DNA of 43,544 nt from Gemmatimonadota bacterium (GCA_038128265.1 JAYPJE010000035.1:1-43544); one strand, 5' to 3'; counted from the first letter of the stretch, positions 4,021 through 24,598 are shown. Notes: generated from the sequence alone by a model not told the origin. Made by a program: numbers and translations.

Positions 4021-5952
4021 ATGAGAATACTGTCCAAACTTTCCCTCGTGTTTGCAATGGGTTTAGCTGCTGCGGTTTCCGTTAACGCGCAGTTCCTGCA
4101 CATAGGAAATCCCGATCTCCAGCTCCCAGATATGACGAGCGGAGGCAAGCCCGTAACGCTAGAGATCTCCGGTCTCAGCGATATGACCAACTACACGTTT
4201 GGCGGTGCGGATTTAGAGATTCCGTTCACCCTGAACGGCAGTGGAGCAACGGTCTGGCTCATCATCTATACGGATGGTTATAAAGCACCGTTCACCATCC
4301 GCGGTGAGGGTCCGGGTCCGTACCAGGATCCAGAGCACAACACCCCGGGCTGGAACGTGGTTGCCGGGACCGATGTCTTGGTCTACAAGTCCCCCGGCCA
4401 GCGCTTTAATGAAGGCGAAAACTCCATCGTCTGGAACGGTCGCGACATGTCCGGCAACGTAGTCGAGCGCGGATCGTATCAGATGTTTCTCGCCGCGTTT
4501 GACGACGAGGCCACGCCCCATATCGTGGGCGCCGCGGCTCGCCAGTTTGGCAGCGGTCAGACCATCTACATCAACCCATCGCGCGGCGAGTTCGTGAACT
4601 TCACGGGCGAAGTCGCCAACATGGAGAATGATTGGATTGCCGCCGGTATTGATGCATACGACCTAGTCGACAACCAGTCTGTTGTGGACGCCTGCGGCGA
4701 CCGCGAAGGATGTCCGACGGGTATGCTCAGCGCCACGCCGCTCAACGGCAGCATGACCGAGTGGATTGGCAACCATCGCGGCGGTGGGTTCGGCTGGCTC
4801 TATCGCTACCAGTACAACTGGGACACGCGCCAGATCACCATGCACGAAGATTGGGGCGAAGATGCCGGCGCCGAGTTTGGCGTGCTGAATCTTCAGGACG
4901 TCCTTCCGGGTCGTCAGTATGCCTCTACGACAAACCCAGAGAAGACCGTCGTGTATGCTACGGCGGGCGTCGCGGGCACGGTGAGCAAGATTGCCGCGTA
5001 CTCGATAGAGAGCGGTTCGCTCTTGGGCGAGTGGGATCTGACGGACATGTTCCTCTACGATAACAACGGCAGCGATCGTTCGGGTGGTCCCGGAACGATG
5101 GCCCGCTTTTACAACGGCGAGCCCGATCCGGCCGGTATAACTCTGTCGGGTCACCACACCTCGCTGACGGTTCGCTTGGACTATGAGGGCAACGTCGTGT
5201 ACATGAACCGCAACGGCGACGGATACGGCGACTCGCGCACCTTTTCCGAGGGCACGTTCGGCGACCTCGAATACGGCCACACGGAAGCACCGGCGTTCAA
5301 GTACTCGCTGTACTCCACCAAGTGGGGTTGGGTTACCAACATCGAAGCCGGTTCGAATACGACGCAGAACGGTTTCGTGTTGGGCGAGGACGGTTCGGGC
5401 CTGTTCCACTTTGAGCCCAAGAACATTCCCACCAGCTGGCCGCAGTACAACATCATCGTTGATGAAATGGACGGTGATTGGGACGGCGTGTATATGAGCA
5501 TCGGCGGTTTTGGCGATGCGGCAGCGGCGAACGACTTTGTTCCGGTGCCAGAGGAAGGTGCGTTGGCCATACTGTCGCACTATCCGATCGTGCACATGCC
5601 CTACGACCAGAAGCGCGCCCTATTGGGCGAGCCCGCGACGGCGGTTTACGAATTGGAAGGCGCAGCGTTGCCGACGGCGTACGAGATCAGCGATGCGGCT
5701 CCCAACCCGTTCAACCCCGAAACGTCGATCAATTTCTCGCTGCCCTGGGATGCTCCCATTCTGGTTGAGATCTACAACACTCAAGGCCAGAAAGTGCGCA
5801 CCCTGCTCGACGATCGCATGAATGCGGGTGAGTTCCGCATTTCTTGGGATGGTCGTGACGACAGCGGCGCTCAGGTCGGAAGCGGTATGTATATGTATCG
5901 CGTCCAGGCGCCGAACCTGAACGTCACGAGGAAAGTCACGTTGTTGAAGTAG
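4021..5952 (+). CDS. Exported surface protein with N-terminal FlgD-Ig-like domain and C-terminal FlgD-Ig/T9SS type A-like sorting domain
   Basis: Signal peptide (MRILSKLSLVFAMGLAAAVSVNA-Q). C-terminus PNPFNPETSINFSL...IYNTQGQKVRTL...WDGRDDSGAQVGSGMYMYRV...RKVTLLK. Second copy near the N-terminus (IPFTL...WNGRDMSGNVVERGSY). RBS AAAGGTGG. Confidence 0.85.
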   Translation: MRILSKLSLVFAMGLAAAVSVNAQFLHIGNPDLQLPDMTSGGKPVTLEISGLSDMTNYTFGGADLEIPFTLNGSGATVWLIIYTDGYKAPFTIRGEGPGPYQDPEHNTPGWNVVAGTDVLVYKSPGQRFNEGENSIVWNGRDMSGNVVERGSYQMFLAAFDDEATPHIVGAAARQFGSGQTIYINPSRGEFVNFTGEVANMENDWIAAGIDAYDLVDNQSVVDACGDREGCPTGMLSATPLNGSMTEWIGNHRGGGFGWLYRYQYNWDTRQITMHEDWGEDAGAEFGVLNLQDVLPGRQYASTTNPEKTVVYATAGVAGTVSKIAAYSIESGSLLGEWDLTDMFLYDNNGSDRSGGPGTMARFYNGEPDPAGITLSGHHTSLTVRLDYEGNVVYMNRNGDGYGDSRTFSEGTFGDLEYGHTEAPAFKYSLYSTKWGWVTNIEAGSNTTQNGFVLGEDGSGLFHFEPKNIPTSWPQYNIIVDEMDGDWDGVYMSIGGFGDAAAANDFVPVPEEGALAILSHYPIVHMPYDQKRALLGEPATAVYELEGAALPTAYEISDAAPNPFNPETSINFSLPWDAPILVEIYNTQGQKVRTLLDDRMNAGEFRISWDGRDDSGAQVGSGMYMYRVQAPNLNVTRKVTLLK

Positions 5953-5972
5953 CTCTGCTACTTGTTTGCATG

Positions 5973-6008
5973 ATAAGCCACCGGTGTATCCGTACGCCGG
6001 TGGCTTAT
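5973..6008 (+). terminator. Strong intercistronic stem-loop (leaky terminator or mRNA-stabilising hairpin)
   Basis: ATAAGCCACCGGTGTA-TCCG-TACGCCGGTGGCTTAT: 16-bp stem with one G.U pair and a UNCG-type tetraloop, followed by TATTACT rather than a clean U-run. A small second hairpin AAGTAGC-TCT-GCTACTT (5947-5963) spans the stop codon. Confidence 0.75.
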
Positions 6009-6031
6009 TATTACTGATAGGAGGACTGCCG

Positions 6032-8128
6032 TTGCACTGGGTTCGATTCGCCTTTGTACTTGCCGCTGTATGGGTGATGAACGCACGGGCAGAACAGCAG
6101 GTGGTTACCGCCTGGCCGACGACGACGAACTATCTAGGATTTATTGATTTTGAACAGGCGATAGACGGTCGCATACACGTGTTGATCGGGGGGCAGTACG
6201 CGCTCTATTTGGACGGTGAATTAGTCGGCGAGGGCGACGGCGGTGCTGGACTGGCTTCCTACGAGGTCTCGTTTTCTCGAAATACGAACAATATAGCTCT
6301 CGTAGTGGAAGACGAAGGCTTTCCCAATTCGTACGGATATTTTCTTGCCGTTGAAACGGAAGAGGCGCTGGTCGTCGCTTCGCCCAGCGATCGGACGTTT
6401 CCCTGGTTTTGGGCCGATTTTCCACTGCAAAATGAACCGGGTGCCGATTGGATGGAGCTGAGGTCCAATCGCTTGGACCGACACGAGGAAGACGGACAAT
6501 CGGTGACCTGGACGCCCGTGCAGGAAGGCTCTCTGTCGGGTGGCGCGTTTGCCGAGGTGCCGGGCTTGGACGCGGACGTCAGGAGTTTAGCTGGGTACCC
6601 AGGAGGCGCCGACGGCGGACGGGGCGGTCTGCAGCTGCGCTCGTTCAAGGGCGTTAACCTCGCGCTGGGCTCCTATTCTGCCGATCCAAACCTGGTAGAC
6701 GGCGATATAAATACCTCCTTTAACTTTCGAAGGGGCGCATCGGCGCTGCTGCAAAGCGCGCAGACGGATTTGGGCCGGCTGGTGCCCATAAGCAAGGTGC
6801 GCGTCCTGACCGAGCCCCCTTCTCGAGGAACGTTTGAAGACGTCTCGCTGCGGGGCTACAGCATATTTGTGAGCAAGGACGGCGTCGACTTCATTGAGGT
6901 CGGGTCCGCCAATAACATCGTCAATTTTCAGGAGACAACCGTCGAATTCCCGACGATTGTCGCGCGGCACGTTCGCCTAGTGGCGACGGATTTTTCAACG
7001 CGCGACGCGTCGCCTCGCGTGGGCGAAATGGAAGTTTACGGCGATGGCGTAGGTGCGAGCGGTCTCTATACGTCGCCTCCCATGAACCTAGCCGATGGCG
7101 CACCAATAAATTTTCGGGCCGTGCGTGCCTATGGCGAAGTGCCCGACCAAACGGATATGAAGCTGCGCTTTCGCACGGGCAACGACGGCGTCCTTTGGGA
7201 AGAGTGGTCCCCGTGGCAGGCGGCCAGCGCGTCGGGACTAGACGTGGCCGAACCGCGCAGCCAACTTCAGTTTCAGGTCCTGATGGACTCGCGCGACGTG
7301 CTGGTTTCGCCGCGCTTGGATAGCCTACATATCGAGTACGACGCAGAGATTATTCCGGCCCGGGGCGCGCAGTCTTGGATTGCTCCGCTGCAGGTGCCGA
7401 TTGGCCAGGACGTCGACTTTACCTATCGGCTGCAAATCGAGATGGAAGGCGCTGAGGGCGAGGGCGTCGAGCGTGTTGCCGTACTGACGCAGTGGCCGGC
7501 CACGGTCGACTGGAATGCGATCACCTCTACCGGCGCAGCCAGCGTTGACCTGGAGCGATCCTACGCAACCGACGATTCGCTCGTCGTACACTTTTCGCCG
7601 CCTATCGCCGAGACGACGGAGCTGACGATTCCATTTACCAGCCGTCTGCTCTCGGCCAAGCATCGCTTTTCGTCGTTTCTCTTTTCCCCCCAGTCGTCCA
7701 ACCCGCTCAAAACAGACGAGCGCGGTGGCGTAGACGAGGAGAGTGGTGAGTCGTTTGCGGTAACCGTGACGACCGACGATTTCGAAATTCCCATTCTCCA
7801 GGACGTCGAGGTTAGTCCTGCGATTGTCACGCCCAATGGGGATGGCATTAACGACAGCGCGTCGCTGCGCTTCACGCTAGGTCGGATGGAAAATGCCACC
7901 CTTCGGTTGGAAGTATATACCATGTCGGGTCAGCGCGTGCGCACACTTTCATACGAGGGGATAAATGCAGGCCGCTACGGCGGCTGGGGCTCCTCTTCTC
8001 TAGTGCGTTGGGACGGGCGTGATGACGCGGGCCACCTGGTCACTCCCGGCGTTTACGTGTATAAACTGGTCGTTGAGCTAGATCCGACTGAACGCGCTTC
8101 GGTAGGGTCAATCGGCGTAGCTTGGTAA
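6032..8128 (+). CDS. Exported protein with discoidin/F5-8-like domain and C-terminal FlgD-Ig / gliding-motility-associated (CHU_C, type B CTD-like) domain
   Basis: TTG 6032 follows AGGAGG and gives a signal peptide (LHWVRFAFVLAAVWVMNARA). NLALG..NLVDGD...TDLGRLVPISKVRV...YSIFVSKDG...ARHVRL...EMEVYG is the discoidin pattern. C-terminus VSPAIVTPNGDGIND...VYTMSGQRVRTL...WDGRDDAGHLVTPGVYVY. Confidence 0.8.
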   Translation: MHWVRFAFVLAAVWVMNARAEQQVVTAWPTTTNYLGFIDFEQAIDGRIHVLIGGQYALYLDGELVGEGDGGAGLASYEVSFSRNTNNIALVVEDEGFPNSYGYFLAVETEEALVVASPSDRTFPWFWADFPLQNEPGADWMELRSNRLDRHEEDGQSVTWTPVQEGSLSGGAFAEVPGLDADVRSLAGYPGGADGGRGGLQLRSFKGVNLALGSYSADPNLVDGDINTSFNFRRGASALLQSAQTDLGRLVPISKVRVLTEPPSRGTFEDVSLRGYSIFVSKDGVDFIEVGSANNIVNFQETTVEFPTIVARHVRLVATDFSTRDASPRVGEMEVYGDGVGASGLYTSPPMNLADGAPINFRAVRAYGEVPDQTDMKLRFRTGNDGVLWEEWSPWQAASASGLDVAEPRSQLQFQVLMDSRDVLVSPRLDSLHIEYDAEIIPARGAQSWIAPLQVPIGQDVDFTYRLQIEMEGAEGEGVERVAVLTQWPATVDWNAITSTGAASVDLERSYATDDSLVVHFSPPIAETTELTIPFTSRLLSAKHRFSSFLFSPQSSNPLKTDERGGVDEESGESFAVTVTTDDFEIPILQDVEVSPAIVTPNGDGINDSASLRFTLGRMENATLRLEVYTMSGQRVRTLSYEGINAGRYGGWGSSSLVRWDGRDDAGHLVTPGVYVYKLVVELDPTERASVGSIGVAW

Positions 8129-8155
8129 ACGATATTGAATAACTGCCACAGGTCA

Positions 8156-10828
8156 ATGCGATCACAGACGTTTGTCCTGTTCGTCCTAGGGCTGCTATGC
8201 GCCCCGCTGTCGGTCGATGCGCAGTTCCTTTCGCGCGACTTCCGCGACCTTTGGTCGAACGAGGTCTTCGAGAACTACGGAACGGCCGGCTATAGGGACT
8301 ACGACTACGACGAGGAAAATCGGCGCTTTGACTACTTTGGCGATTTGCTTATCGACGGCGTAGACATCGTACGCTACAGCGAAATTCGCCGCGACCAGCT
8401 TGGCATACCGGGTAGCTACGAATCGCGCAACGCGCGCTACGATCGCTTTTTTGACAAGCTGATTATATCCAACGAGGGGTTTGGACCTTGGTCCACGCGC
8501 CTGATCATTGGCGACCATATCCGCACGTTCTTCACCCCGATGACGCTCAACCTGCCCAGGTTTAACGGCATTCGATGGGATGGGGCCTCAAAGAAGAATC
8601 GCTTCAGCCTGCTCACCTCGCAGCTAACGGATCCCATCTTCGTTCCCTCCAACACGAACATCGACCAGAGCTTCGAAGACCGGCGCATCTTCGGCACGTC
8701 TATTTTTGCAGGGCATTGGGAAAGCCAGATAGGTAGCATCCTGAAAATTGGGAGCAGCTACGTAAACACGCATCGCTACGATGCCGAGTCGAGCGGACGG
8801 GTAAACAATCTGAAAGGCGTTATTCCCCGCGTCATGGAGAACGGCCTGCGCAAAGTGTACGTGTTCATATCCGACGACTCGCCGGAAGAAGACGCAAACG
8901 GGGCGCGCCTGCACGAGTTAACCCTTAGCGTGGGGGGGCGCCAGGTCGAACCGATTCGAGTGAGTCGGGTGGACAATCTGTTGCAGCAGCTGCCCGTTAC
9001 CAAAGACGTTTCCAGCACTGTGCTGCTGAGCCCGAATGAGATAAACTACCTGAGGAAAAACAGATCGTGGATTCGCGGCGTGATAGAGGCCAGCAACCAG
9101 CCGTTTTTCAAGGCGCTCATCTCGGAGGTTACCGCGCCGCTGGCCCAGATGCCCACGATTGCAAGCCCCGAAGCCGTCAGCGGAACCGATCTCATCATAT
9201 ACGAGTACGATCTGCCCGATACCACCGCAAACATTCAGTTTGAAGCGGTCGTCGCCAACGACTACAGCATAGATGTAGTCGGCGCGATGCGCGTCCCCAC
9301 CCTGGCATCGGGCGACGACGACTTCTACTACGACTGGTATAACGCGAGCCGGGCGATCGGCAATCCGACGTCTTCTAGCAATACGCGTCGCATACGCTTC
9401 AGCTATGGATTTCCAACGGGTATTTCAATTGTTGGCGTGAATTTTGAATCGACGATCGCCGGGTTTTCAGCCAGCGGGGAGTACACGCGCAGCACGCGCT
9501 TTTTCCAGGCGCCCGCGCTGGGCGGTCAGCAACACCAGCGCCAGGCTTCGGCGCTGTACGTCAACGTATCGCGCGAGATCGGCGACCGGGCTTTGCTGGG
9601 GCTTGAATACTTTGACGTGCCGCACGACTATCGAACGGACTTCTCCATTTTTGAACGGTCGAGCCGTGGCCCCACGCTCAGCGGCAGACTCTATGCGCCG
9701 TTCAATATGGTCGAGGACAACGACGACCTAGACCAGTGGCCCGACCGAATAGAGCACGAAGATCCGCTCATGCCCTACCAGCGCTCTCTTGCGCAGGGTA
9801 ACGGTGTCTACCCCGGCTTAGATCCCGATGCCGATGGCGTGCTCGACTTTGACGTCGACCGCGCGGGCGGCACGGATGCGTACCAGCCGTTTATATCCTA
9901 CTACGCCGAGCCGCCGGAGCTCGTCTATGGAGACGACTTCAACAACAACGGCGTGGCCGACTTTCGCGAAAACGACAACCTGCCGGACTACGCCTACCCG
10001 ATAGACCACAAGGGGCTGCACGCCTTTGCGCGCCACAGCTGGTCCTCCGGCGTGCAGGTTCGCCTGGGAACGTACCGAGTGCGGCGCAAGGCGATGGGGG
10101 ACAAAAACGAAACTACTTACACAGAGGGCAGCTACGCCCGCGAGATAGGCCAGCTGGGCACCGTCCAAATGCACCATCGAATTCGGTGGGTCGAAGACTC
10201 AATTGGCAACACGATTTACAACACGAATCCCTCGACGCTGCGGCCCGATGCCCTGCAAAACAGGAACAGCCTGAACAACCTGACCTACGTGGAAGCCAAC
10301 CTGCAGCCGACACAGGGCGTTGTTACGCGCCATATTGCCTCGGTTAACCACATTGATTTGCGGGGCGATATTCTGGCAGATCCGCTGATGGCAAAGCCGG
10401 GCTCCACGCTGCAGGCGACGCTGGTCAACAAGGTCGGCTGGACCTACGCACGCGGCCGACTCAGCGTGTACCCCCAGTTTAAGCACATCTTCCAATACGT
10501 GAAGTACCCGGAGCGGTCTGAGCCCTATCGAAAGCGCCACTGGCTCATGCCCATTCTCCGCGCCGATTGGCAAATCGGTCCGAAGACCAAGATCCGCACC
10601 GGCCTGCAGGGGCTGCCGTTCTTTGCGGAAATGTCGCGCGACCTGGCGGCTCCAGACCAGAACTTTGATCGATCGACCTACACCATCTTCGGTCAGAACA
10701 ACAGCAACTATCTGGGATATGACCTGTCCATACTGATGGGCCTGTATCGGACAAAGCAGGAATACACGAATACGGCTCGTCCCAGCGTCGGGTTTGTAGA
10801 ATACTTTTTTCGCGTGCTCATAGGGTAA
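8156..10828 (+). CDS. Large exported hypothetical protein, predicted outer-membrane beta-barrel family, paralog 1 of 3
   Basis: Signal peptide (MRSQTFVLFVLGLLCAPLSVDA-Q), many amphipathic aromatic-rich beta segments, Asp-rich loops (EDNDDLDQWPD, PGLDPDADG, DDFNNNGVAD). Collinear motifs shared with the next two genes. Confidence 0.7.
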   Translation: MRSQTFVLFVLGLLCAPLSVDAQFLSRDFRDLWSNEVFENYGTAGYRDYDYDEENRRFDYFGDLLIDGVDIVRYSEIRRDQLGIPGSYESRNARYDRFFDKLIISNEGFGPWSTRLIIGDHIRTFFTPMTLNLPRFNGIRWDGASKKNRFSLLTSQLTDPIFVPSNTNIDQSFEDRRIFGTSIFAGHWESQIGSILKIGSSYVNTHRYDAESSGRVNNLKGVIPRVMENGLRKVYVFISDDSPEEDANGARLHELTLSVGGRQVEPIRVSRVDNLLQQLPVTKDVSSTVLLSPNEINYLRKNRSWIRGVIEASNQPFFKALISEVTAPLAQMPTIASPEAVSGTDLIIYEYDLPDTTANIQFEAVVANDYSIDVVGAMRVPTLASGDDDFYYDWYNASRAIGNPTSSSNTRRIRFSYGFPTGISIVGVNFESTIAGFSASGEYTRSTRFFQAPALGGQQHQRQASALYVNVSREIGDRALLGLEYFDVPHDYRTDFSIFERSSRGPTLSGRLYAPFNMVEDNDDLDQWPDRIEHEDPLMPYQRSLAQGNGVYPGLDPDADGVLDFDVDRAGGTDAYQPFISYYAEPPELVYGDDFNNNGVADFRENDNLPDYAYPIDHKGLHAFARHSWSSGVQVRLGTYRVRRKAMGDKNETTYTEGSYAREIGQLGTVQMHHRIRWVEDSIGNTIYNTNPSTLRPDALQNRNSLNNLTYVEANLQPTQGVVTRHIASVNHIDLRGDILADPLMAKPGSTLQATLVNKVGWTYARGRLSVYPQFKHIFQYVKYPERSEPYRKRHWLMPILRADWQIGPKTKIRTGLQGLPFFAEMSRDLAAPDQNFDRSTYTIFGQNNSNYLGYDLSILMGLYRTKQEYTNTARPSVGFVEYFFRVLIG

Positions 10829-16600: not shown

Positions 16601-16791
16601 ACACGTTTCAACAATTTGATGCCGTGGCGATGGTGTCGAACAATTCGAAGTACTTTGGCTATGTCGTCTCTACAAACGCCGGCATTAGTCACAGGAATAA
16701 AGAGTACAAGAACAGCGAGATAGGACTAACTGGTGACGAAGAGTTTGTCGCTGCGTTTGTCAACGTCATCGTGGGATTTGAGGCAGAATAG
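13642..16791 (+). CDS. Large exported hypothetical protein, predicted outer-membrane beta-barrel family, paralog 3 of 3
   Basis: Signal-like N-terminus (ATG 13642; TTG 13627 overlapping the previous stop is an alternative). Motifs IYANEIRTRLTPLTL, EDNDDDDRYPD, GVFPGLDEDKDG, GEDANHNDVIDARE, NNSKYFGY. Confidence 0.7.
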   Translation: MVKNSPNRKIGLPVRWLLHCACALVLLVGDGVAQPAASGSTEATEEIGAQRVLGSSAFLGRFTDEYTNWGDVDYPRQIGITSNLRNYYSLMGDPLVYGSESIRWVERRGLGVQRFAGSGGSQLSESLAHGQSGSSYARLFNYVVVGTDGTDDWQSRFIYANEIRTRLTPLTLKMSNLNGLRIDVGSKKNSFSALFSRLHAPIYSSGRENDQNIKAKAMLWGAHYERHVGFMNFGATFVNAHQYEPMMEQKALSTKGVPGAMQNAPAMLALRISDDSPTDGKGGVVIHSVSVRVNGVVRPEVEPFIVRLSKRGDERQSYITGRLRSGERKPLPPLANDYQSINRGSSYNTYDPYINYAAFDVDVYYRGYEFPFWIDHLYYRDYKLYGPEHVINQSRVENEGEAPVVVDEEFAHELVEESGDFGFATAADLPQAFDGEEYAMLYVDLEPLGEFIESVEVDLSLANDYHVELSEIDISGTAPNPTRSNYRERYRYATYFRTVARAEGNPQDGTPKLVRVKSGVPTGLSLYSLNAHGVLHGFEINAEFSRSRSFFQYASGIPQPRVSLDELSINALQRETMPGGRSSINDNAFYLTVKKDAERWGFGAEVFSIGPHYTTEFRSYIGRDERDTSGNPIAYNNTMIHRLIEDNDDDDRYPDSWYNNAPSGLQGQSDVDGVFPGLDEDKDGIPDTNRNFNAVPDYQEPFLMYTADPPVYDFGEDANHNDVIDARENDIVADLPYDIDTRGFHTYLSIWPLRGMSVTLGLKDTRQIAGPAPDRSLYSRIGYARQIPSLGNFLASASIERIEDGIEDELSVYSDRVLTIAEQFELDFAGLQRNIKVAPFLEGPREDPMLFLNSTRGRIYIDTKWGGASSAWKIRNKIKYETNNQHEGKVFDGRLQEGRRLNRWTMVNAFDYQWQLSERVSLFSGIKMRYRREWNSADEGDITRETHTIPIAKLQYRLTEQTRFQLGVQGLGFALPYRVNDSADSDNTFQQFDAVAMVSNNSKYFGYVVSTNAGISHRNKEYKNSEIGLTGDEEFVAAFVNVIVGFEAE

Positions 16792-16794: not shown

Positions 16795-19700
16795 ATGAGT
16801 TTAGCACTTCTCGTCGGGTTGATTACGGCAGCGGGCGCCGTGCTTTCGTTTCGCGCACCAACGGAACAGGAGCTGATTGCCTCTTTCACAGAGGCGCAGC
16901 GCTTTTACGCGGAAGGTGCGTACGATCAGGCCATAGATCGCTATCGCGAAGTGTCCGTCGTGCGGAGTCGCGTTCTGGATGCAGAAACCATACAGGTCGT
17001 GGTCGGCGAAGATCACTATCCCGTTCAAGAGGCCGCCCTTTACCAAATGGGCAATGCCTACAACAAGCGATTTTCAGACTACCGCAGCTTCTCGCAAAAT
17101 GACCTGAGCCGAAGCAGCGAGTACCTGCAGCTCGCCGACAGCTCGTATGTGCAGTCCGTCGACTCTTTTGAAAAGGTTATTCGCTCTGCCTCGAGCAAAG
17201 AGCTGAAAGGGCTGGCACACGGCCGGCTTATCGAAACGCATTTCGAAGCAAAGAAATACGAAGACGTCGTTAGTGCGTCGCAGCGTTTAATCGACGAGTA
17301 CGGCGCTGACGACTATGCTCTGCCCGGCTTCTACAACTTGGGTTGGGCCCACTACGAAATGGGCGATTACAACGCCTCAATAGAGGCATTTGTCGACTTG
17401 GTTGAAAACTACCCCAACGGCTATCGCACGGATCGCAGCCTGTTCCAAATAGGCGAGTGCTATTTGGCCATGGACGACTGCGGTTCGGCCGTAGAGTACT
17501 ATCAGCGCCTCGTCCAGCGACAGCGCATAGACGAGCTGTCAGAGGACCAGCTGGCTGCCATGCAGCGCGAGAAGCTGGCCGGCCTAGTAGACGAGACGGC
17601 GTTAGAGCTAGCGGCAAAAGCCGAGATTCGCACGGCTACATGCTATGGCAAGATCGGCGAGTACGAAGCGGGCGTGGCGTCATTCCGCAGGGTCATAAAG
17701 AGCTTTGCAAGTGAGCGGACGCTCGTCGAGGAGGCCTACCTGCGCCTGGCCGATATGTACGAGCAGCGCGGCGATCTAGACGAGTCGGTGCGCACCTACC
17801 GCGAGGCAATTGATATTTCCTCAGATCGCTCTCTGCGGGCGCGCATCCAATTTGCGCTGGCGGAGAAGCTCTTTTCTCAAAAGCAGTACGAAGCCGCTCT
17901 GTCAGAGTTTCGGGTGTTTATACAGGGTTACGGCGACATGGCTAGCAGTGTGGGGTTTCCCCTCGACCGAGTGCACTACCGAATGGGTAATAGCTATCAG
18001 CAGCAGGCCCAGTTGCGCATGGAGGAGGGCGACAGGGCGGCGGCGGAGCCATTTCTAATGCGGGCAGTCGCCTATTACGACACCATTCTACAGGAACAGA
18101 ACACGCCCTATAAGTGGGAGTCGCTGTTTAACAAGGCGTATGCCCTGCAGACGGTGGGCGGAGCCGACAACGAGCGTTCCGCCGAGCGGGCTTACCGGTC
18201 TCTAATAGACGAAGCCGGTGAGTCCTATGCCCAGAGGGCGCTCTTGCAGCTTTCGGAGCTGAGCTTCCAGCGCGGCGAGTACCGCCTCTCAGACTCTCTG
18301 GCCAACCAGGTTCTCGTCCTCTTCCCCGATGCGGCGGGGTTGGACGATGCGTATATGCGGCGGGCACTTGCACTGCAGAGTATGGGCCAACACGAGGATT
18401 CCATTGGCGAATTTCTACGCGTAGGCAGCGATTCGCGACACTATACGAGCTCTCGCCTGGGCGCGGGCCACCAGCTGCTGGAACAGAGCCAGTACGAGCA
18501 GGCTCTGGCGATTCTGACAGAAGGCATGAGCGGCGCGGATGCCCAACAGGGATATAGCTTCCTTTACCTGATTGGACAGGCCCATTCGGCAATGGGCCAT
18601 TGGACGCAAGCCATACAGGCCTATGGCGAGCTGATTGAGTCCGATCCGGAGAGTGAGCTCTTGGTTGCATCTCGCTTGGCTAGGGGCAATGCCGCCCTTT
18701 CAGATGATCGCTTGGCGCTGGCCGAAAGCGACCTGAGCTGGGTTGTCGACAACGTGACGGACCTAGAGAAAATTCGCTATGCGCGCGAAACGCTCATTTT
18801 GCTTCTCCTCAAAGAAAACCGCTCGACCGATGCCGTCGAGCTGCTGGAGAGCATGTCGAACAACGAGGCCAAGCCGCAGGAGCGAGCCGAGCTGCTGAGC
18901 CGCATTATGGACTCCTACTACGCCGAGGGGCGATGGGAGGAGACGGCCCAGATGGCCAGGCGCATTCTCGCCCTTGCGTTTGAAGACCAGCCCTCGGCGG
19001 AAAGGCCGTACGGCCTGCGGGAAAAGGCGCTGTTTATACTTGGAGAAATTTTAGTTCGCACGTCTGATAGCACCGAAGGCGTCAGCACATTGCAGCAGTA
19101 CGTGGAGCAGTTTCCATCGGGTCGCTTTGCCGTGAACGCCAAGCTCAGCCTGGCAACCATTGCCTTTTCACAAGGAGACTTGGAGGCGGCAAAGAGCCAG
19201 CTGACAGAGGTTCAGAGCGAAGAGCTGACGTCTGAGCAGCGCTTTCTCGTGACCTACTATCTGGCGAATACGCACTATAGCTTGCGCGAGTTTACAGCGG
19301 CCCACGCGCTGTTCGAGCAGATGGTTGCCGATCACCCCGACCACGACTCGGCCGACGCGCTGTACTTTGGGCTGGGCGAGTCAAACTATCAGCTCGGTCG
19401 TTTTCAGGAAGCGATCGATGCGTACGGCGTGCTGCTGACGACGTATCGCGATAGCGACAACGCCGATGATGCCCTCTACAATATGGCGTGGTGTCTGATT
19501 GAGTTGGAACGCCAAGAAGAGGCGATGGAACGGTTTGGCCTATTGCTGGAGCGCTATCCCGACAGCGAGTTTGCACCGTCCGCCCAGTTTACCTTTGGCG
19601 ACTATGCCTACAACGCCGGGCAGTACAAGCAGGCGCTCGAAGCCTACTCAATTGTGGAAGAGCGCTACCGGCGCTCGACCGTTGCCCAACAGGTGCCCAA

Positions 19701-20031
19701 GTTAAAGAAAGAGCTCACGGAAGCCATTGCCTACGAAGCCTATGAAAAGGGGCTAGCGCTTATGGACTCGGCCGAAGTGGGCAACCGGTTGGAATTTTAC
19801 GAAGAAGCCATTGATGTATTTGAAGAAATTATAGAAGAGTACGACGGCACAGAGAGCGCCTTGGGTGCCCTCAGCAATATGGGAGTGTGCTTGGAGGGCA
19901 TCGGCAAGTGGAACGATGCCGTTCGCGTCTACGACCAGGTTATTGAACTGTACGAGGCAGAGAAGGCAACGCGCGATGCGTATCAGTTTGCCCGATCTCA
20001 TCGCGATTGGATCATGGCCTCACGGCTCTGA
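16795..20031 (+). CDS. Large tetratricopeptide-repeat (TPR) protein with N-terminal signal/anchor (BamD/YbgF-like repeats)
   Basis: Hydrophobic N-terminus followed by many TPRs of the 'ALYxxG..Y..A...F..LxxxYP.S' type (ALYQMGNAY, GFYNLGWAHY, SLFQIGECY, ALYFGLGESNY, ALYNMAWCL, AQFTFGDYAY, ALSNMGVCL). Confidence 0.9.
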   Translation: MSLALLVGLITAAGAVLSFRAPTEQELIASFTEAQRFYAEGAYDQAIDRYREVSVVRSRVLDAETIQVVVGEDHYPVQEAALYQMGNAYNKRFSDYRSFSQNDLSRSSEYLQLADSSYVQSVDSFEKVIRSASSKELKGLAHGRLIETHFEAKKYEDVVSASQRLIDEYGADDYALPGFYNLGWAHYEMGDYNASIEAFVDLVENYPNGYRTDRSLFQIGECYLAMDDCGSAVEYYQRLVQRQRIDELSEDQLAAMQREKLAGLVDETALELAAKAEIRTATCYGKIGEYEAGVASFRRVIKSFASERTLVEEAYLRLADMYEQRGDLDESVRTYREAIDISSDRSLRARIQFALAEKLFSQKQYEAALSEFRVFIQGYGDMASSVGFPLDRVHYRMGNSYQQQAQLRMEEGDRAAAEPFLMRAVAYYDTILQEQNTPYKWESLFNKAYALQTVGGADNERSAERAYRSLIDEAGESYAQRALLQLSELSFQRGEYRLSDSLANQVLVLFPDAAGLDDAYMRRALALQSMGQHEDSIGEFLRVGSDSRHYTSSRLGAGHQLLEQSQYEQALAILTEGMSGADAQQGYSFLYLIGQAHSAMGHWTQAIQAYGELIESDPESELLVASRLARGNAALSDDRLALAESDLSWVVDNVTDLEKIRYARETLILLLLKENRSTDAVELLESMSNNEAKPQERAELLSRIMDSYYAEGRWEETAQMARRILALAFEDQPSAERPYGLREKALFILGEILVRTSDSTEGVSTLQQYVEQFPSGRFAVNAKLSLATIAFSQGDLEAAKSQLTEVQSEELTSEQRFLVTYYLANTHYSLREFTAAHALFEQMVADHPDHDSADALYFGLGESNYQLGRFQEAIDAYGVLLTTYRDSDNADDALYNMAWCLIELERQEEAMERFGLLLERYPDSEFAPSAQFTFGDYAYNAGQYKQALEAYSIVEERYRRSTVAQQVPKLKKELTEAIAYEAYEKGLALMDSAEVGNRLEFYEEAIDVFEEIIEEYDGTESALGALSNMGVCLEGIGKWNDAVRVYDQVIELYEAEKATRDAYQFARSHRDWIMASRL

Positions 20032-20048: not shown

Positions 20049-21275
20049 ATGAACACGCGCTTTAGTTCGCCCAGCGACTCAATAAGTCTCAAACACCTAC
20101 TTCGGGATACGTCTCGCTATACCGTTTGGGGATTGCTGTGTGCGCTGGCACTGGGAGGAGGACTGACGCTATACATGATTCTCTCCCAGGACAAGAAAGA
20201 GGCGCCGCCGCCGGCGATCACCCGGCTAATTATCCGCAAGCCGCGCTCTTCCAAAGCGTTTGTCCTGAAAAAACAGCGCATACAGCCGCGCGCGATGACA
20301 AAGAAAATGACGTCTCTGACGCCACGCGTGCAGATGCCCGCTGCGCAAAGCGTTGCCGGTATATCCTCGATTGGCAGAATCGCGACGTTCGACTACAACG
20401 TCAGCCCCGACGTAAAACTCGACCTGAACGCCGGCGATGTCGATTTGTCGGCCGCGGTTATAGCAGGGACTAAAGAGCCGGAAAAGCGCATAGCCATGCG
20501 CGAGGAGCTGATCGATCTAAAGGCGCTGGACACGGGTAAATACAAGGGGCTGATCATACAGGATCCATCCGATCGCCGCAGCGTAAAAGGCTTTATTTAT
20601 TTGGGTACGGCCTGGGCTAACGACCTCGAGCCGACCTTTGATAGCGCCGCTAAGGCCATTCCAAACCTGGTTGATGCGCTCAACAAACAGACGGGCATAT
20701 CGGCACAGGTTGACGCCCACCTGTTTATCGATTCACAGGAGCTATTTCGGACGCCGTTTGTCTACTTGACGGCGCAGGAGGCGTTCGAGTTGACCGAGCG
20801 CGAGATCGAAAATCTCGGTGAATACCTGCGTCGAGGGGGTTTTATTTTCGCCGACAATGCCAATCCTACTGCCGAGTATAGTCAAGCAGAAGCATCGTTG
20901 CGCAAGGTTTTTCGCGATGCGTTGAGGTCGCAGGGCGTGCTGCAAGTCATTCCCAACAACCACCCGATTTACCACACGTTCTACGATTTTGACGGGCCCC
21001 CTGTTGGCTCGGAGCTGGAAGTGCCCGACAGCGGCGGTCAGCGCGGGTTGGAAAACGTCGTAATAGCCCAGCAGTCCTATAACCTCGAAGGCGTGTTCTT
21101 GGGCGATCGATTGGTCGCTATTTACTGCGACAAAGGCTATGTGCACACGTGGGCGCGCAACTTTGGCAACGAACCCCAGCTGCGCTTTGGCATTAATGCT
21201 GTCGTCTTTGCCTTGACGCAGCAGGGCTCCATCGCCCAACAGCAAATCGATTTCTTCAGTCAACGAAGCGAATGA
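20049..21275 (+). CDS. Membrane-anchored DUF4159 domain protein with TonB-like N-terminal architecture
   Basis: Single TM (VWGLLCALALGGGLTLYMILS), Pro/Lys/Arg-rich linker, then the DUF4159 signature: LFRTPFVYLT...LTEREIENLGEYLRRGGFIFADN...IPNNHPIYHTFYDF...LEGVFLGDRLVAIYCDKGY...LRFGINAVVFALT. Confidence 0.8.
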   Translation: MNTRFSSPSDSISLKHLLRDTSRYTVWGLLCALALGGGLTLYMILSQDKKEAPPPAITRLIIRKPRSSKAFVLKKQRIQPRAMTKKMTSLTPRVQMPAAQSVAGISSIGRIATFDYNVSPDVKLDLNAGDVDLSAAVIAGTKEPEKRIAMREELIDLKALDTGKYKGLIIQDPSDRRSVKGFIYLGTAWANDLEPTFDSAAKAIPNLVDALNKQTGISAQVDAHLFIDSQELFRTPFVYLTAQEAFELTEREIENLGEYLRRGGFIFADNANPTAEYSQAEASLRKVFRDALRSQGVLQVIPNNHPIYHTFYDFDGPPVGSELEVPDSGGQRGLENVVIAQQSYNLEGVFLGDRLVAIYCDKGYVHTWARNFGNEPQLRFGINAVVFALTQQGSIAQQQIDFFSQRSE

Positions 21276-22063
21276 GAGAATTGGGTATGAAATACCTGTG
21301 CGTGTTATGCGTAGTATGGCTCAGCGGCTGTCAGAGCGTATTTAACCCATCCCTATCCATTTACCACAGCGAGTTGTACGCTGCAGAGGAGGGTCTCGAC
21401 ACGTCGTCCGAGCTCATACTGGCAGCCCGACAAAACGGCAGCTATACGTCGGAAGACGCTGCTTCCATAACGTTTGCCATGGAGGGACTGCGCATAAAGG
21501 TGGAGCCCTTGAGCGACGACCAGCTGAACGCGCTATTCCCACAGGATTCGGCAAAGGGGCGCTTTTCGACCAATCCCTATACGTATGGAGATTGGATCGA
21601 TCCGCTAAAGGGATATCGCCCCAAGCGGTTCACCGTGTTTCGCGTGACCGTCGTCAACGACATTTACGCGAAAGTGCTCTTGGATCCCATAAAGTCCTAC
21701 CTGCTGACGGATCAGGGAGAGAAGCTGTACGCCTTTGGCATTCCCGCATCCGCGCCCTACGAGAGTTTTGAGCAGTACTATCGCGGTCTGCGCGGACAAA
21801 GCGGCAATGAGTTCTATCGCTTCGACCTGCGCATGGGCAACGTGCGCAGCTCGGCCTACTTGGAAGACCAGCTCGTATTTAAAGGCGAGAGCTACAGCGG
21901 CCTGATTGCCTTTAGGCCGCTGCAGGACAAAGTAGAGTCCGTAGAGATGGTCTTGCGCGACTTCATATTCAAGTTCGATGCTTCGGGACAGCCACTTGAG
22001 TCGCTGGATGTGGCCCTGTCATTTGAGCACGCGGTCGAGCTGCTCCCAGCGGAAACGGACTAG
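21272..22063 (+). CDS. Hypothetical lipoprotein
   Basis: Lipobox VVWLSG-C after MKYLCVLC (alternative start 21287). ATGA overlap with the DUF4159 stop. Beta-rich C-terminal part (FTVFRVTVVN...SGLIAF). Confidence 0.75.
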   Translation: MRELGMKYLCVLCVVWLSGCQSVFNPSLSIYHSELYAAEEGLDTSSELILAARQNGSYTSEDAASITFAMEGLRIKVEPLSDDQLNALFPQDSAKGRFSTNPYTYGDWIDPLKGYRPKRFTVFRVTVVNDIYAKVLLDPIKSYLLTDQGEKLYAFGIPASAPYESFEQYYRGLRGQSGNEFYRFDLRMGNVRSSAYLEDQLVFKGESYSGLIAFRPLQDKVESVEMVLRDFIFKFDASGQPLESLDVALSFEHAVELLPAETD

Positions 22064-22064
22064 C

Positions 22065-22952
22065 GTGGCGGCATTTCTCTTTGCGAGCGTGCTGCTCTGC
22101 GCGTGGCCGAGCCTTGCCAGCTTGCCGCCCGTTCGCGTCGCTTTGCTGCCCTTTGATGACCAGGCTGGCTTTCAGGGCGCGTGGAAATTGGCCAGCGATG
22201 TTCCAAAGCTACTGGGGGATTATTTGCAGGACATACCGGGCATCGCCGTCGTGGCGTCGGAAACAAATACCCGCACGACGGGAGACCTGGCCGAGATGGC
22301 CAAGCAGTGGCAAGGGATCGCAGCGCAGCTCGATGTGGATGTGCTCATACGCGGCCGCGTAAGCAAGTTTGGCGTTCGCCGCACCGTGGCTGGCGACCCC
22401 AATACGTTTGGCTATAAATCGTATACGCACAGTGTTAAAATAGACGAGATTGAGCTGATCGATGGAAAGTCGGGTTCGATCCTGTCCACGTTGGACGTCA
22501 AGAAAGATTCGGTAGAACGCCCGATCGACTTTAGCCTATTCGGCAAGCCCAACGTGCAAGACCGGGAATTTCGAGAACTTCTGTCCGCAGAATTTGCGTC
22601 GGAAAAGTTCTTTGCCCTAACCTTTGGCCAGCACGTGCAGAGCGTGTTCGGAGAACTGAGCCAAGCGATCGCCGATTCGCTGCTCGGGCGAGCGCCTATC
22701 GCGCTGCGAGAGGATGCGAAAGTGCTAGCCGTTGACGGGGTAGAGATATATCTGAATATCGGCAACGGCGACTTGGTCAGGCGGGGAGATATTTTTTCCG
22801 TTCTGCACAATGGCCAGCACGTTGGTGCCGTGCAGATAGAGGAGATCATAGGTCAACACCTGTCAAAGGCTGCTGTCATTGACAACGAACGTCCAATACA
22901 GACGGGGTTGAGTTTGGGGGCGCGTTTAGTTCCAGGCGAGACGAAAAACTAA
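22065..22952 (+). CDS. Exported protein with CsgG/TolB-N-like alpha/beta domain and FlgT C-terminal-like domain
   Basis: GTG 22065 gives a signal peptide (MAAFLFASVLLCAWPSLA). VRVALLPFDD...LASDVPKLLGDYL...LDVDVLIRGRVSKF, then KVLAVDGVEIYLNIG..DLVRRGDIFSV...VGAVQIEEI...LSKA. Confidence 0.6.
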   Translation: MAAFLFASVLLCAWPSLASLPPVRVALLPFDDQAGFQGAWKLASDVPKLLGDYLQDIPGIAVVASETNTRTTGDLAEMAKQWQGIAAQLDVDVLIRGRVSKFGVRRTVAGDPNTFGYKSYTHSVKIDEIELIDGKSGSILSTLDVKKDSVERPIDFSLFGKPNVQDREFRELLSAEFASEKFFALTFGQHVQSVFGELSQAIADSLLGRAPIALREDAKVLAVDGVEIYLNIGNGDLVRRGDIFSVLHNGQHVGAVQIEEIIGQHLSKAAVIDNERPIQTGLSLGARLVPGETKN

Positions 22953-22998: not shown

Positions 22999-23733
22999 AT
23001 GTTGGAAATTATTCAAAGCGGTGGCCCACTGATGATACCCCTCATCGTTTGCGGCTTGCTATCTGTCTGCCTGTCCATAGAGCGATTCCTCGTTCTAAAT
23101 GCCTTGCCAAGCGCCGAACAGTCCAAGGAAGAACTGGAGCAGATTGAAGCGGCGCTGCTGCGCGAGGGACAGCAGTCGGCGGTGCAAATCTGCGAAAGCG
23201 GCAAGGGCGTACTCAACTTTGTCTTTGCCTCGCTGCTAAAGCGCTACAATACGCTCATAATCGAACAGGAAGAATTCAAGGCGACAAACGAAGAGATCAT
23301 CAAGCTGGGAGAAGGCGGCGGCAGCGGCGAAATGGGCCGGTTTCTGGTTATGCAAAAAGAGATTGCCGATATGAAGGACGAACTTGTCATACAAACGGAA
23401 GAGTCGGCGCGCACATACTTAGGCAAGCACTTACCCATTATCAATACCATCGGCAATATCGCGCCGCTCATCGGCCTGTTGGGCACGATAACCGGTATGA
23501 TCGTCGCTTTTGAATCGATTGCCGCTTCTGGCGCTGGAGACCCCAAAGTCGTTGCTGGCGGTATTTCTCAGGCGCTGGTTACTACGGCGACGGGCCTTAT
23601 CGTGGCGATTCCGTCCATTGTCTTTTATCGCTACTTGGCGCGAACGGCCGACCGTTCGCTAGAGCGCGTAGAGGCCTATGGCCACGCCTTTGCCAATGCG
23701 CTCATCATGTCGGGCCGAAAGGCGAGCGCGTAG
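22999..23733 (+). CDS. exbB: MotA/TolQ/ExbB proton channel family protein
   Basis: GGPLMIPLIVCGLLSVCLSIERF; TIGNIAPLIGLLGTITGMIVAFESI...VAGGISQALVTTATGLIVAIPS. RBS AAGGAG. Confidence 0.95.
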   Translation: MLEIIQSGGPLMIPLIVCGLLSVCLSIERFLVLNALPSAEQSKEELEQIEAALLREGQQSAVQICESGKGVLNFVFASLLKRYNTLIIEQEEFKATNEEIIKLGEGGGSGEMGRFLVMQKEIADMKDELVIQTEESARTYLGKHLPIINTIGNIAPLIGLLGTITGMIVAFESIAASGAGDPKVVAGGISQALVTTATGLIVAIPSIVFYRYLARTADRSLERVEAYGHAFANALIMSGRKASA

Positions 23734-23743
23734 GAGAATCGGT

Positions 23744-24157
23744 ATGGCCAGGCACCGCATCCGCAGAGCTCGCAGCTTTTCCGAAGACGGCGAGCCCGAT
23801 ATGACGCCCTTGATCGACTGCGTATTTCTGTTGCTCATCTTCTTTATGGTGACGACGGTCTTTCTGCAGACAAAAGGGCTTGAAGTCGATATGCCGGCAG
23901 ACAGTCAGGCCGAGGAAGAGAAGAAGAAAGATATTAATGTGGCCATTGATCAGTACGGCAAAATTCAGATTGGCGGACAGGACGTCGCCCGCGAGGCGCT
24001 GCAGGAAAAGCTCAAACAGGCGGTCGAAGAAGCAAATAACGACAACATCATTATCCAAGCCGATGGGGAATGCGTTCAGAAAGATGTCGTCTACGTGGTA
24101 GACAGTGCTCGGCAGGTGGGCATTGAGGGTATTGCCTTTGTTCAGGAAAAAGAGTGA
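23744..24157 (+). CDS. exbD: Biopolymer transporter ExbD/TolR, copy 1
   Basis: DMTPLIDCVFLLLIFFMVTTVF, IIIQAD, VVDSARQVGI. ATG 23744 with AGGAG RBS. Confidence 0.95.
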   Translation: MARHRIRRARSFSEDGEPDMTPLIDCVFLLLIFFMVTTVFLQTKGLEVDMPADSQAEEEKKKDINVAIDQYGKIQIGGQDVAREALQEKLKQAVEEANNDNIIIQADGECVQKDVVYVVDSARQVGIEGIAFVQEKE

Positions 24158-24166
24158 GGTCGCACC

Positions 24167-24598
24167 GTGGCAAAGAGAAGCTTGGCCGAAGAAGAACAAG
24201 GACTCAACCTAACTCCGCTGATCGACTGCGTGTTTTTGCTGCTCATATTCTTTATGGTAACAACGGTTTTTAAGCAGCCCTACACGCTGCAAGTGCAGCT
24301 GCCTGAAGCGACGAAGGCCAGCCAAATAGAAGAGAAAAAGCTGGTGGGGACGGTGACGATCGACGGGCGTGTAGAAATCAATAGAAATCTAGTTACTAGC
24401 GGAGAGCTCGAGTCCGTTTTGCTGCGTGAAAAGCAGGATACGGGCAGCTTAACGCTCATACTGAGAACCGATCAGCAGACGCGGCACAAGCACATGTTAG
24501 AAATGCTCGAAGTGGCTAAGCGGGTCGGCGTGGAAAAGATCGTGTTGGCGACGGATGACCAGCAGGTGGAAGTCGCAGCGGGAGTAACCGGCGACTAG
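24167..24598 (+). CDS. exbD: Biopolymer transporter ExbD/TolR, copy 2
   Basis: NLTPLIDCVFLLLIFFMVTTVF, VQLPEA, LILRTD, AKRVGVEKI. GTG start with GAGG RBS. Confidence 0.95.
   Translation: MAKRSLAEEEQGLNLTPLIDCVFLLLIFFMVTTVFKQPYTLQVQLPEATKASQIEEKKLVGTVTIDGRVEINRNLVTSGELESVLLREKQDTGSLTLILRTDQQTRHKHMLEMLEVAKRVGVEKIVLATDDQQVEVAAGVTGD

Follow-up and report, generated by a model that had tools for sequence, protein, structure and literature searches.

The window analysed here, a stretch of 43,544 nucleotides (nt) assigned to a Gemmatimonadota bacterium (GCA_038128265.1 JAYPJE010000035.1:1-43544), carries between positions 4021 and 24598 a co-directional cluster of twelve genes, g1-g12, which is conserved as one co-inherited system and combines an ExbB/ExbD motor with a putative TonB-like transducer, three predicted giant outer-membrane barrels and surface proteins bearing type IX secretion system (T9SS) tails (Table 1). 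Open reading frame (ORF) calling recovers all twelve genes on the + strand where a preliminary description of the window had placed them, with two start codons best moved downstream: that of g9 lies most likely at 22065 rather than 21978, because its orthologs are 301-316 amino acids (aa) long and its Atlas entry begins at residue 30, and that of g11 most likely at 23744 rather than 23678, because its orthologs measure 137-141 aa. From g1 to g12 the intergenic distances then read 13, 6, 3, -4, 3, 17, -4, 1, 46, 10 and 9 nt, and the short or overlapping spacing first reported (here -4 to 46 nt) stands. Scans of the locus for promoters (5, against 9.0 ± 3.5 in shuffles) and terminators (17, against 20.2 ± 5.2) do not rise above shuffled sequence. 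Since its defining parts are matched as first described, the description of the cluster is confirmed; the interpretation then attached to it is supported in part.

Table 1. Genes of the cluster, with window positions, strand and assignment (TM, transmembrane; TPR, tetratricopeptide repeat; CBM, carbohydrate-binding module).
Gene	Position	Strand	Assignment
g1	4021..5952	+	Exported, 643 aa; C-terminal T9SS type A / FlgD_ig tail
g2	5966..8128	+	Exported surface protein, 720 aa; discoidin/CBM32-like lectin domain, residues 239-342; CHU_C/FlgD_ig-type T9SS tail
g3	8135..10828	+	Predicted giant outer-membrane barrel, motor-linked subfamily, 897 aa
g4	10832..13630	+	Predicted giant outer-membrane barrel, 932 aa, Asp-rich insert
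g5	13627..16791	+	Predicted giant outer-membrane barrel, 1054 aa
g6	16795..20031	+	1078-aa TPR protein; N-terminal hydrophobic segment; CpoB/YbgF-type TPR_6 units; presumed periplasmic scaffold
g7	20049..21275	+	Candidate TonB-like transducer: cytoplasmic N-tail, one TM helix, basic/Pro linker, DUF4159 head
g8 (LIPO8)	21272..22063	+	Lipoprotein, short form; lipobox LSGC; start overlaps g7 stop by 4 nt
g9	22065..22952	+	Exported; LpoB/CsgG/FlgT-like by language-model features only
g10	22999..23733	+	ExbB/TolQ-family motor subunit
g11	23744..24157	+	ExbD/TolR; conserved TM Asp (motif PLID)
g12	24167..24598	+	Second ExbD/TolR; 38% identical to g11; PLID TM motif too

The motor is recognised at the family level. 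Domain calls on the twelve proteins (Pfam and NCBIfam) place g10 in MotA_ExbB (PF01618, 1.5e-29) and g11 and g12 in ExbD (PF02472, 7.7e-31 and 3.6e-27), with the Asp of PLID inside both TM segments; g10-g12 thus supply the ExbB/TolQ and the ExbD/TolR with a TM Asp that a Ton motor requires. All three score best against the TolQ/TolR models of NCBIfam, and all stay below the cut-offs (g10 against TolQ, 86 bits). The TPR giant g6 passes tol_pal_ybgF (TIGR02795, 189 bits; cut-off 90.1) by way of five stretches of repeated TPR_6 units in its 1078 aa. g9 has no Pfam, NCBIfam or PDB sequence match; its earlier label, CsgG/FlgT-like, therefore lacks a family match and survives as a lead, from language-model features that group g9 with LpoB/CsgG clusters of the Atlas at 0.92-0.94. 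None of the twelve proteins matches Plug, TonB_dep_Rec, TonB_C (PF03544, TIGR01352), TolB, Pal or flagellar structural families, in agreement with the preliminary description, which had listed no TonB-dependent receptor, TonB C-domain, TolB, Pal or flagellar gene.

Homologs of g4 and g7 that bear a name come from metagenome-assembled genomes labelled Candidatus Latescibacterota, some Gemmatimonadetes or Myxococcales. In a 121-genome phylum sample, g7 occurs in 72 genomes and the barrel profile in 71: both are present in 70, g7 only in two, with weak matches (E about 2e-12), the barrel only in one, and neither in 48, which comprise all members of three families (f2, f3 and f4; 44 genomes) and a few others. 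Because related genomes are not independent, this co-occurrence is read as co-inheritance and does not amount to a statistical test. Among 101 genomes of a second phylum the barrel is found in four and a long TM-type DUF4159 protein (249-260 bits, ORFs of 475-566 aa) in exactly those four; 67 further genomes have only short, stand-alone DUF4159 proteins.

Gene order is kept as well. Barrel, TPR giant and transducer occur together in 10 of 20 regions fetched around g7 homologs. Loci of the same family read g2-like gene (preceded by a g1-like gene), three barrels, TPR, (two small genes), DUF4159, g8, g9, ExbB, ExbD, ExbD, and distant loci read g2-like gene, a barrel of ~315 aa, one or two giant barrels, TPR, two small genes, ExbB, ExbD, ExbD, DUF4159, long g8. 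The two small genes, which in most relatives separate the TPR giant from the motor or transducer (e.g., L060 14234-15191 and L068 12387-13508), encode a DUF5683-like protein (~190 aa) and a protein of ~130-150 aa with no family; both are absent from the window's genus. In 68 barrel-profile loci taken from one-genome-per-species contigs, a tailed gene is present in 52, barrel plus TPR plus DUF4159 in 28, ExbB in 13 and ExbD in 10, and the full core recurs in loci labelled KSB1, Kryptoniota and Zhuqueibacterota. Given the co-occurrence in 70 of 121 genomes and the conserved order, the barrel and g7 families are linked more than by chance. In Latescibacterota and related uncultured phyla, g1-g12 is conserved and inherited as a single unit, and synteny and co-occurrence bear out the single system proposed at the outset.

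The window's genome (4.29 Mb in 102 contigs, 84% complete) holds 24 paralogs of the g3-g5 barrel family, 53 g2-like genes, 36 further genes with the g1 tail as best match and 8-9 g8-like lipoproteins, g8 being present in motor modules and barrel cassettes alike. Modules composed of a giant TPR protein, ExbB, ExbD(s) and a TM-DUF4159 protein number three, on contigs C35 (the window), C7 and C37, and g6 paralogs adjoin both modules outside the window. With 24 barrels to three motor modules, the arrangement looks like one energiser serving many clients, and the three barrels of the operon, at first taken as private parts of its machine, turn out to have paralogs spread over cassettes with T9SS-tailed proteins. 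A canonical Ton locus, TPR(379 aa)-ExbB-ExbD-ExbD-TonB_C, lies on C20, and its correspondence with the three giant TPR-ExbB-ExbD(-ExbD)-DUF4159 loci is the ground for regarding them as Ton paralogs. The C37 module (L011, 35071-41669) consists of a PorV/PorP-like barrel, a 1079-aa TPR protein, ExbB, just one ExbD and a DUF4159 transducer of 452 aa that begins with two hydrophobic segments at its N-terminus; it has no giant barrel before the contig end.

A T9SS-tailed gene lies within three same-strand genes of 21 of the 24 barrels, as against 157 of 3555 other genes; 19 of the 24 are far from any motor module, and 31 of the 53 g2-like genes are not near a barrel. When 97 of the 124 listed neighbours of barrel paralogs are scanned for domains, discoidin tailed proteins, leucine-rich-repeat proteins, g8-like lipoproteins, CBM9-like proteins and SurA-like peptidyl-prolyl isomerases (PPIases) recur, as do FG-GAP/UnbV_ASPIC proteins, TPR proteins, membrane proteins of the DUF6785/6784 type and parts of sugar ATP-binding cassette (ABC) transporters. 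CBM9-like proteins and a sugar ABC binding protein with permeases adjoin the window cluster as well as 3 of 15 scanned loci, and a mannobiose-phosphorylase-like gene flanks one module.

As first reported, g3, g4 and g5 are mutual paralogs (BLASTP 3e-68, 2e-68 and 1e-38). g3 and g5 match no Pfam or NCBIfam family, a PDB sequence search with g3 yields no useful match, and g4 has only SlpA_C (PF21620) at 27 bits, below the cut-off of 35; orthologs of g3, 50-54% identical, are found in synteny. An AlphaFold 2 (AF2) model of g4 from 48 sequences (alignment A1) is made up almost entirely of long antiparallel strands (mean predicted local distance difference test, pLDDT, 82.7; predicted template modelling score 0.82), and comparison with known structures (Foldseek, VIA-align) returns outer-membrane barrels only. 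Deinococcus SlpA/SDBC leads (Foldseek E 1e-8; 8ae1_A, Z 14.9, 379 residues aligned, root-mean-square deviation 8.5), with HasR, AlgE, LptD, MtrB, SprA, ushers and porins trailing by only 1-3 Z. The g3-g5 family is accordingly predicted to be one of giant outer-membrane barrels; the structural match names no family, SlpA standing just 1-2 Z above many unrelated barrels. Placing the barrels within SlpA was considered and dropped, the PF21620 match being sub-threshold and confined to g4, the resemblance structural only, the SLH domain without a Pfam match and the coiled-coil part not detected. Dropped too was the idea that they are ordinary TonB-dependent transporters (TBDTs), as Plug (PF07715) and TonB_dep_Rec (PF00593) have no match on g3, g4 or g5 and the same models find nine Plug-containing ORFs elsewhere in the genome.

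g4 carries an Asp-rich, Ca-binding-like insert, at about residues 530-630, and conservation is highest within it, at about residues 570-630. A profile search retrieves 1024 cluster representatives out of 1.84 billion when the threshold is E<=1e-3, and 698 when it is E<=1e-10. In a midpoint-rooted FastTree tree of 55 barrels, whose branch supports were not inspected, 21 of 22 motor-linked barrels fall on one side, including the window's three, the two of C7 and others under different phylum labels; the other side holds 23 barrels, among them all 19 cassette barrels of the window's genome. Most cassette barrels bear a conserved N-terminal extension of ~45 aa that is absent from the motor-linked ones.

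Both proteins at the head of the operon have the look of T9SS cargo. g1 matches FlgD_ig (61 bits) and the T9SS type A tail TIGR04183 (31.9 bits; cut-off 23), its N-terminal ~540 aa having no family match. g2 matches F5_F8_type_C (44 bits), its discoidin domain resembling PDB CBM32 modules of NagH/NagJ (E 0.0012), and reaches 25.1 bits against CHU_C, the type B tail, where the cut-off is 27 and its paralogs attain up to 36.9. The C-terminal sorting domain expected of cargo is thus found above cut-off on g1 and, below cut-off on g2 itself, above it on g2 paralogs. The cluster encodes none of the T9SS core parts (SprA, PorU, PorV, GldK/L/M/N); SprA (605 bits), PorU (656 bits) and a PorV-family protein (260 bits) are encoded on other contigs. 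The ~315-aa gene between tailed protein and barrel matches the PorV/PorQ and PorP/SprF families in all five further loci tested, labelled KSB1, Kryptoniota, Zhuqueibacterota, 'Bacteroidota' and Latescibacterota (E 1e-15 to 1e-25; 57-89.6 bits, below the cut-off of 90), and is seen again at L068 and beside the C37 module.

GldL/GldM models find no match in the window's genome, four near-complete relatives, the 121-genome sample or five other carriers. Reasoning from missing GldLM to a T9SS driven by the ExbBD motor was discarded as a test after a control in the 101 genomes of the second phylum: GldM (PF12081) is found in 24 and SprA in 80, and of the 56 genomes with SprA and no GldM just 4 have the barrel. 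Because the model misses 56 of 80 SprA-positive genomes, missing GldLM is uninformative. The disparity itself (SprA in 80, GldM_1st in 24 of 101) may mean that GldM is too divergent for the model in most SprA-bearing lineages or that the T9SS is powered differently in them.

g7 has a single TM segment and a DUF4159 domain (Pfam, 1e-30). In its family the TM helix contains a His in 29 of 42 aligned members, the paralogs on C7 and C37 carry it, and a conserved basic/Pro region follows, a pattern that mirrors the genome's own TonB. hhalign pairs family columns 29-69 with residues 14-56 of that TonB (E 1.6e-4, probability 51%), which is suggestive but not strong evidence of a TonB-type anchor. The DUF4159 head matches a solved, uncharacterised structure, 4i66_A (E 2.1e-23); VWA has no Pfam match there. 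Pfam puts DUF4159 in a glutamine-amidotransferase-like clan on structural grounds (PMC4702930), and no function is reported for it in the literature searched. Several genomes of the phylum sample carry TM-DUF4159 genes in tandem arrays, with up to ~15 matches per genome (e.g., G012 contig C200 and G032 contig C347).

The lipoprotein g8 belongs to no Pfam or NCBIfam family, and an Atlas search with it returns unnamed clusters only; the lipobox Cys is invariant in 34 members of its family. The g7 and g8 genes are adjacent wherever both are called, and a C-terminal DUF4159 is fused to the g8 domain in 4 of the 34 members (loci L122, L131, L137 and L142, labelled Kryptoniota and 'Bacteroidota'); fusions of this kind speak for joint action of g7 and g8. 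Long forms of g8 (398-468 aa) add a C-terminal domain that matches NF033768, the AgmX/PglI C-terminal domain, in 15 of 15 aligned sequences (best 69.9 bits; cut-off 40), TIGR01352 tonB_Cterm in 14 of 15, GltG, in part, in 15 of 15 and GltJ in 9 of 15, and whose profile matches solved TonB C-domains at 8e-7. By profile match, then, the TonB C-domain missing from the transducer is present in the wider family, on lipoprotein g8. Aligned as a whole against the genome's TonB, the g8 family gives no hhalign match (probability 0.4%); the matching domain sits only in the long forms. Across 88 loci, short g8 occurs with g9 in 9 and without it in 11, and long g8 without g9 in 21; the one locus with long g8 plus g9 is probably an ORF-calling artefact.

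A probable TonB-type anchor in the g7 family (the TM His in 29 of 42 members, not in the window's g7; hhalign E 1.6e-4) and a TonB C-domain on relatives' long g8 (15 of 15) make the system a paralogous elaboration of Ton. Consequently, of the interpretation first offered, 'independently built' is given up, and the parts list is retained: motor, transducer-like TM-linker-DUF4159 protein, TPR giant, large barrels (g4 model pLDDT 82.7) and T9SS-tailed surface proteins are all present.

Ton-type force transduction to an outer-membrane module is very probable. In the mechanism that we infer, with its physical contacts, direction of transport and substrate, from the gene identities, the predicted barrel fold, the family anchor, the fusions, the synteny and the co-occurrence, ExbB (presumably a pentamer) and two different ExbD proteins would form an inner-membrane motor driven by the proton motive force, on which g7 would dock through its TonB-like TM anchor while its basic/Pro-rich linker crosses the periplasm. 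The DUF4159 head of g7 would engage lipoprotein g8, so that in relatives whose g8 carries the TonB C-domain the pair would amount to a 'split TonB', and the 1078-aa g6 and the LpoB/CsgG-like g9 may scaffold the g7-g8 link beneath the outer membrane. Force would thereby reach the giant SlpA-like barrels, the operon's three as a resident core and the 19 cassette barrels as clients; T9SS-delivered lectin-like proteins (g1, g2 and paralogs) would capture glycans or other polymers for import through the barrels. That import is the purpose of this split-transducer system is a leaning, held at somewhat under even confidence; the tilt towards it comes from a barrel count of 24 against 3 motors, the N-terminal extension of the clients, the CBM32-like domain of g2 and the sugar ABC, sodium:solute symporter (SSF) and CBM9 neighbours.

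Several results weigh against this account. The window's g7 has Gly at the TM-His position, its closest orthologs likewise lack the His, and hhalign lends the anchor modest support. In the window g8 takes its short form, without a TonB C-domain, and the NF033768 domain was not found in the window's 84%-complete genome. Structural matches of g4 say no more than 'large outer-membrane barrel', and no Plug domain or TonB box is demonstrated in the barrels. Glycoside hydrolase families are missing from the 97 scanned barrel neighbours, unlike in classical polysaccharide-utilisation loci (PULs). Finally, the ancestral cassette, a PorV/PorP-family barrel beside a T9SS-tailed protein, fits anchoring equally well. 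Such anchoring or propulsion, linked to the T9SS, would have PorP/PorV-like and/or giant barrels hold lectin-like, type-B-like-tailed proteins on the cell surface, where ExbBD, acting via g7/g8 and the TPR protein, releases, positions or laterally moves them, by analogy with GldLM-driven SprB-SprF or with the focal adhesions of Agl-Glt. We think it unlikely, and yet keep it close behind import because of the PorP-like neighbour (5 of 5 loci, L068 and the C37 module) and the AgmX/PglI-GltG/GltJ gliding subtype of the long-g8 TonB C-domain. It also draws on the 21 of 24 barrels beside T9SS-tailed genes, on the g2 paralogs that pass the CHU_C type B cut-off, on one TolQ-like plus two TolR-like genes, the count of AglRQS, and on SprA, PorU and PorV in a genome where GldL/GldM models have no match, this last point blunted by a GldM model that misses 56 of 80 SprA-positive control genomes, only 4 of them with a barrel. 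Type B cargo is known to bind PorP-like proteins (PMC9143113), and SprF to be coupled to a moving periplasmic track (PMC12635249). By contrast, 31 of the 53 g2-like genes stand away from any barrel, the window's cluster lacks the PorP-like gene, anchoring does not call for a barrel of a presumed ~30 strands, and sugar transporter neighbours suit uptake better.

Two further accounts are both improbable. One is envelope maintenance of the Tol-Pal kind, in which the g10-g12 motor, the TonB/TolA-like g7, the CpoB-like g6, the LpoB-like g9 and g8 tether the outer membrane and lend it stability, or coordinate peptidoglycan synthesis, in phyla without a recognisable Tol-Pal system. The preference of g10-g12 for TolQ/TolR models, all below cut-off, the ybgF match of g6 (189 bits; cut-off 90.1) and the language-model resemblance of g9 to LpoB/CsgG clusters speak for it, as does the argument that variant force transducers or tethers exist where Tol-Pal is unrecognisable (PMC12204202). 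However, among the twelve proteins, the only part of the genome searched for TolB and Pal, no domain is TolB-like, Pal/OmpA-like or peptidoglycan-binding, the YbgF match stems from the many repeated TPR_6 units of the 1078-aa g6, and three modules per genome, tightly linked to multi-copy barrels and lectin-like cargo, are unexpected of a housekeeping tether. The other account denies a single machine: an energiser operon paralogous to Ton and a PUL-like barrel/cargo cassette would be co-regulated neighbours with no mechanical coupling between g7/g8 and the barrels. The 19 of 24 barrels that lie far from any motor module, and the mere 13 and 10 of 68 barrel loci with ExbB and ExbD, speak for it; against it, the order barrel-TPR-motor-transducer-lipoprotein is kept across several phylum-level labels, motor-linked barrels form a deep clade of their own (21 of 22 on one side of the midpoint root), barrel and g7 co-occur strictly in two samples, and g8 sits in both motor modules and barrel cassettes.

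Latescibacterota are widespread, uncultured polymer degraders. How large substrates pass their outer membrane has only been guessed, with porins and a few TonB receptors proposed (PMC4454575). The operon ties a proton motor to a 24-member barrel family and more than 50 lectin-like surface proteins, and is a candidate for their main route of uptake or surface handling. The fusions (DUF4159 on a TonB-like anchor, DUF4159 on a lipoprotein, the TonB C-domain on a lipoprotein) are natural experiments in rebuilding TonB-type transducers, and DUF4159, with a solved structure and no function, gains a testable role. At its boldest, and as a doubtful prospect, a 'split TonB' powering giant barrels of a presumed ~30 strands loaded by T9SS-anchored lectins could be a third kind of energised outer-membrane transport, replacing polymer import of the SusCD/TBDT type, or doubling as a lectin-moving conveyor, in Latescibacterota and allied uncultured Fibrobacteres-Chlorobi-Bacteroidetes (FCB) phyla.

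Around the operon, the window holds an ankyrin-repeat protein of 546 aa directly upstream (2069-3709, +), preceded by two ORFs with no family match. Downstream, a convergent gene set (24595-31508, -) overlaps the g12 stop by 4 nt and encodes a 1006-aa protein combining FG-GAP/UnbV_ASPIC with TPR, a CBM9-like protein, and the binding protein and two permeases of a sugar ABC transporter; genes for FG-GAP/ASPIC, TPR and SurA-like PPIase proteins turn up again next to barrel cassettes of other contigs. Beyond it lie a protein of 863 aa that resembles glucose/sorbosone dehydrogenases (DUF7133/GSDH) and bears a FlgD_ig T9SS-type tail (31488-34079, +) and an 881-aa ORF (34150-36795, +) in which an N-terminal Kelch/NanM-like (sialate mutarotase-like) beta-propeller is followed by a sodium:solute symporter domain, an unusual enzyme-transporter fusion.

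Compared with known systems, the cluster maps fully onto none of T9SS, Tol-Pal and Agl-Glt, each of which has defining parts unmatched in it, as the preliminary description had presumed. The Myxococcus Agl-Glt apparatus shares one TolQ-like and two TolR-like components (AglRQS), TPR giants, outer-membrane barrels and a surface adhesin, and the TonB C-domain of relatives' long g8 is of its AgmX/PglI-GltG/GltJ subtype in 15 of 15. It differs in that the GltG/GltJ-type C-domain was found neither on the window's proteins nor in the window's genome, in the T9SS tails of the window's cargo, and in barrel size, the window's barrels being 3-4 times larger than GltA/B. No Glt/Agl equivalog model reaches its cut-off on the twelve proteins, where a weak TPR match to Tgl is all that appears at E<=0.01, the outer-membrane and periplasmic parts GltA/B/H/K/C/D/E and the CglB adhesin thus going unmatched, and we know of no Glt counterpart for DUF4159 or g8. 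Tol-Pal differs in its TolB beta-propeller and Pal, an OmpA-like lipoprotein, neither of which is matched among the twelve proteins, the only part of the genome searched for them. Deinococcus SlpA/SDBC is the best structural match of the g4 model and gives a weak Pfam SlpA_C match (27 against 35), but sequence identity is 8-12% and no SLH domain or coiled coil was detected in the barrels.

Ton itself shares the motor families, the probable anchor type of the g7 family, the TonB C-domain on relatives' lipoprotein and the scheme of few energisers and many barrels; the genome's own canonical Ton set, moreover, is also preceded by a TPR gene. By contrast, DUF4159 forms the head in the window, a separate lipoprotein carries the TonB C-domain unless, as in the window, the domain is missing, the barrels are larger and devoid of Plug/TonB_dep_Rec, and a 1078-aa TPR protein and an LpoB/CsgG-like protein are added. 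T9SS type B/PorP-SprF anchors likewise have a tailed-protein gene beside a PorP/PorV-family barrel and barrels coupled to a motor-driven periplasmic structure (PMC9143113, PMC12635249); the window's motor is ExbBD rather than GldLM, no GldK/N-like ring gene accompanies it, and giant barrels and DUF4159 are not T9SS parts. A functional parallel comes from the FCB group: Fibrobacter succinogenes FSU_2396-2403 encodes OmpA, two TPR proteins, ExbB, two ExbD and a TonB-family protein, by published gene content also a TPR-ExbB-ExbD-ExbD-transducer operon, is up-regulated on cellulose, and has been tied by proteomics to a polysaccharide-binding outer-membrane complex, with a proposed role in driving uptake (PMC6851124). 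There, the TonB-family protein is not DUF4159, and the parts of the report covered here mention no giant barrel.

The nearest relative of the core is a class of SHLS-anchored force transducers, of function not known, predicted by Williams-Jones et al. 2025 (PMC12204202). It, too, sets a TPR gene beside one tolQ-like gene and two tolR-like genes that differ from each other, followed by a protein that has a TonB-type TM segment (SHLS/His), a disordered linker and a globular non-TonB head. All parts of that locus are present in the window in permuted order, and relatives L068, L070 and L104 show the published order, TPR-ExbB-ExbD-ExbD-transducer. The published head is called a vWA (von Willebrand factor A) fold, whereas the window's is DUF4159 in Pfam with no VWA match, so that the heads are set apart here by their Pfam label; the published class comes from Proteobacteria, the Planctomycetes-Verrucomicrobia-Chlamydiae (PVC) group, Bacteroidetes and Rhodothermaeota. 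Giant barrels, a lipoprotein adaptor, T9SS cargo and Latescibacterota go unmentioned in the portions of that paper covered here, and the module of barrel, lipoprotein and T9SS cargo has no description in the literature searched. Judged from its genes, the motor-transducer core resembles this class except for its DUF4159 head, and the system as a whole is a variant of the Ton/Tol/Agl-Glt kind, not an independently invented machine.

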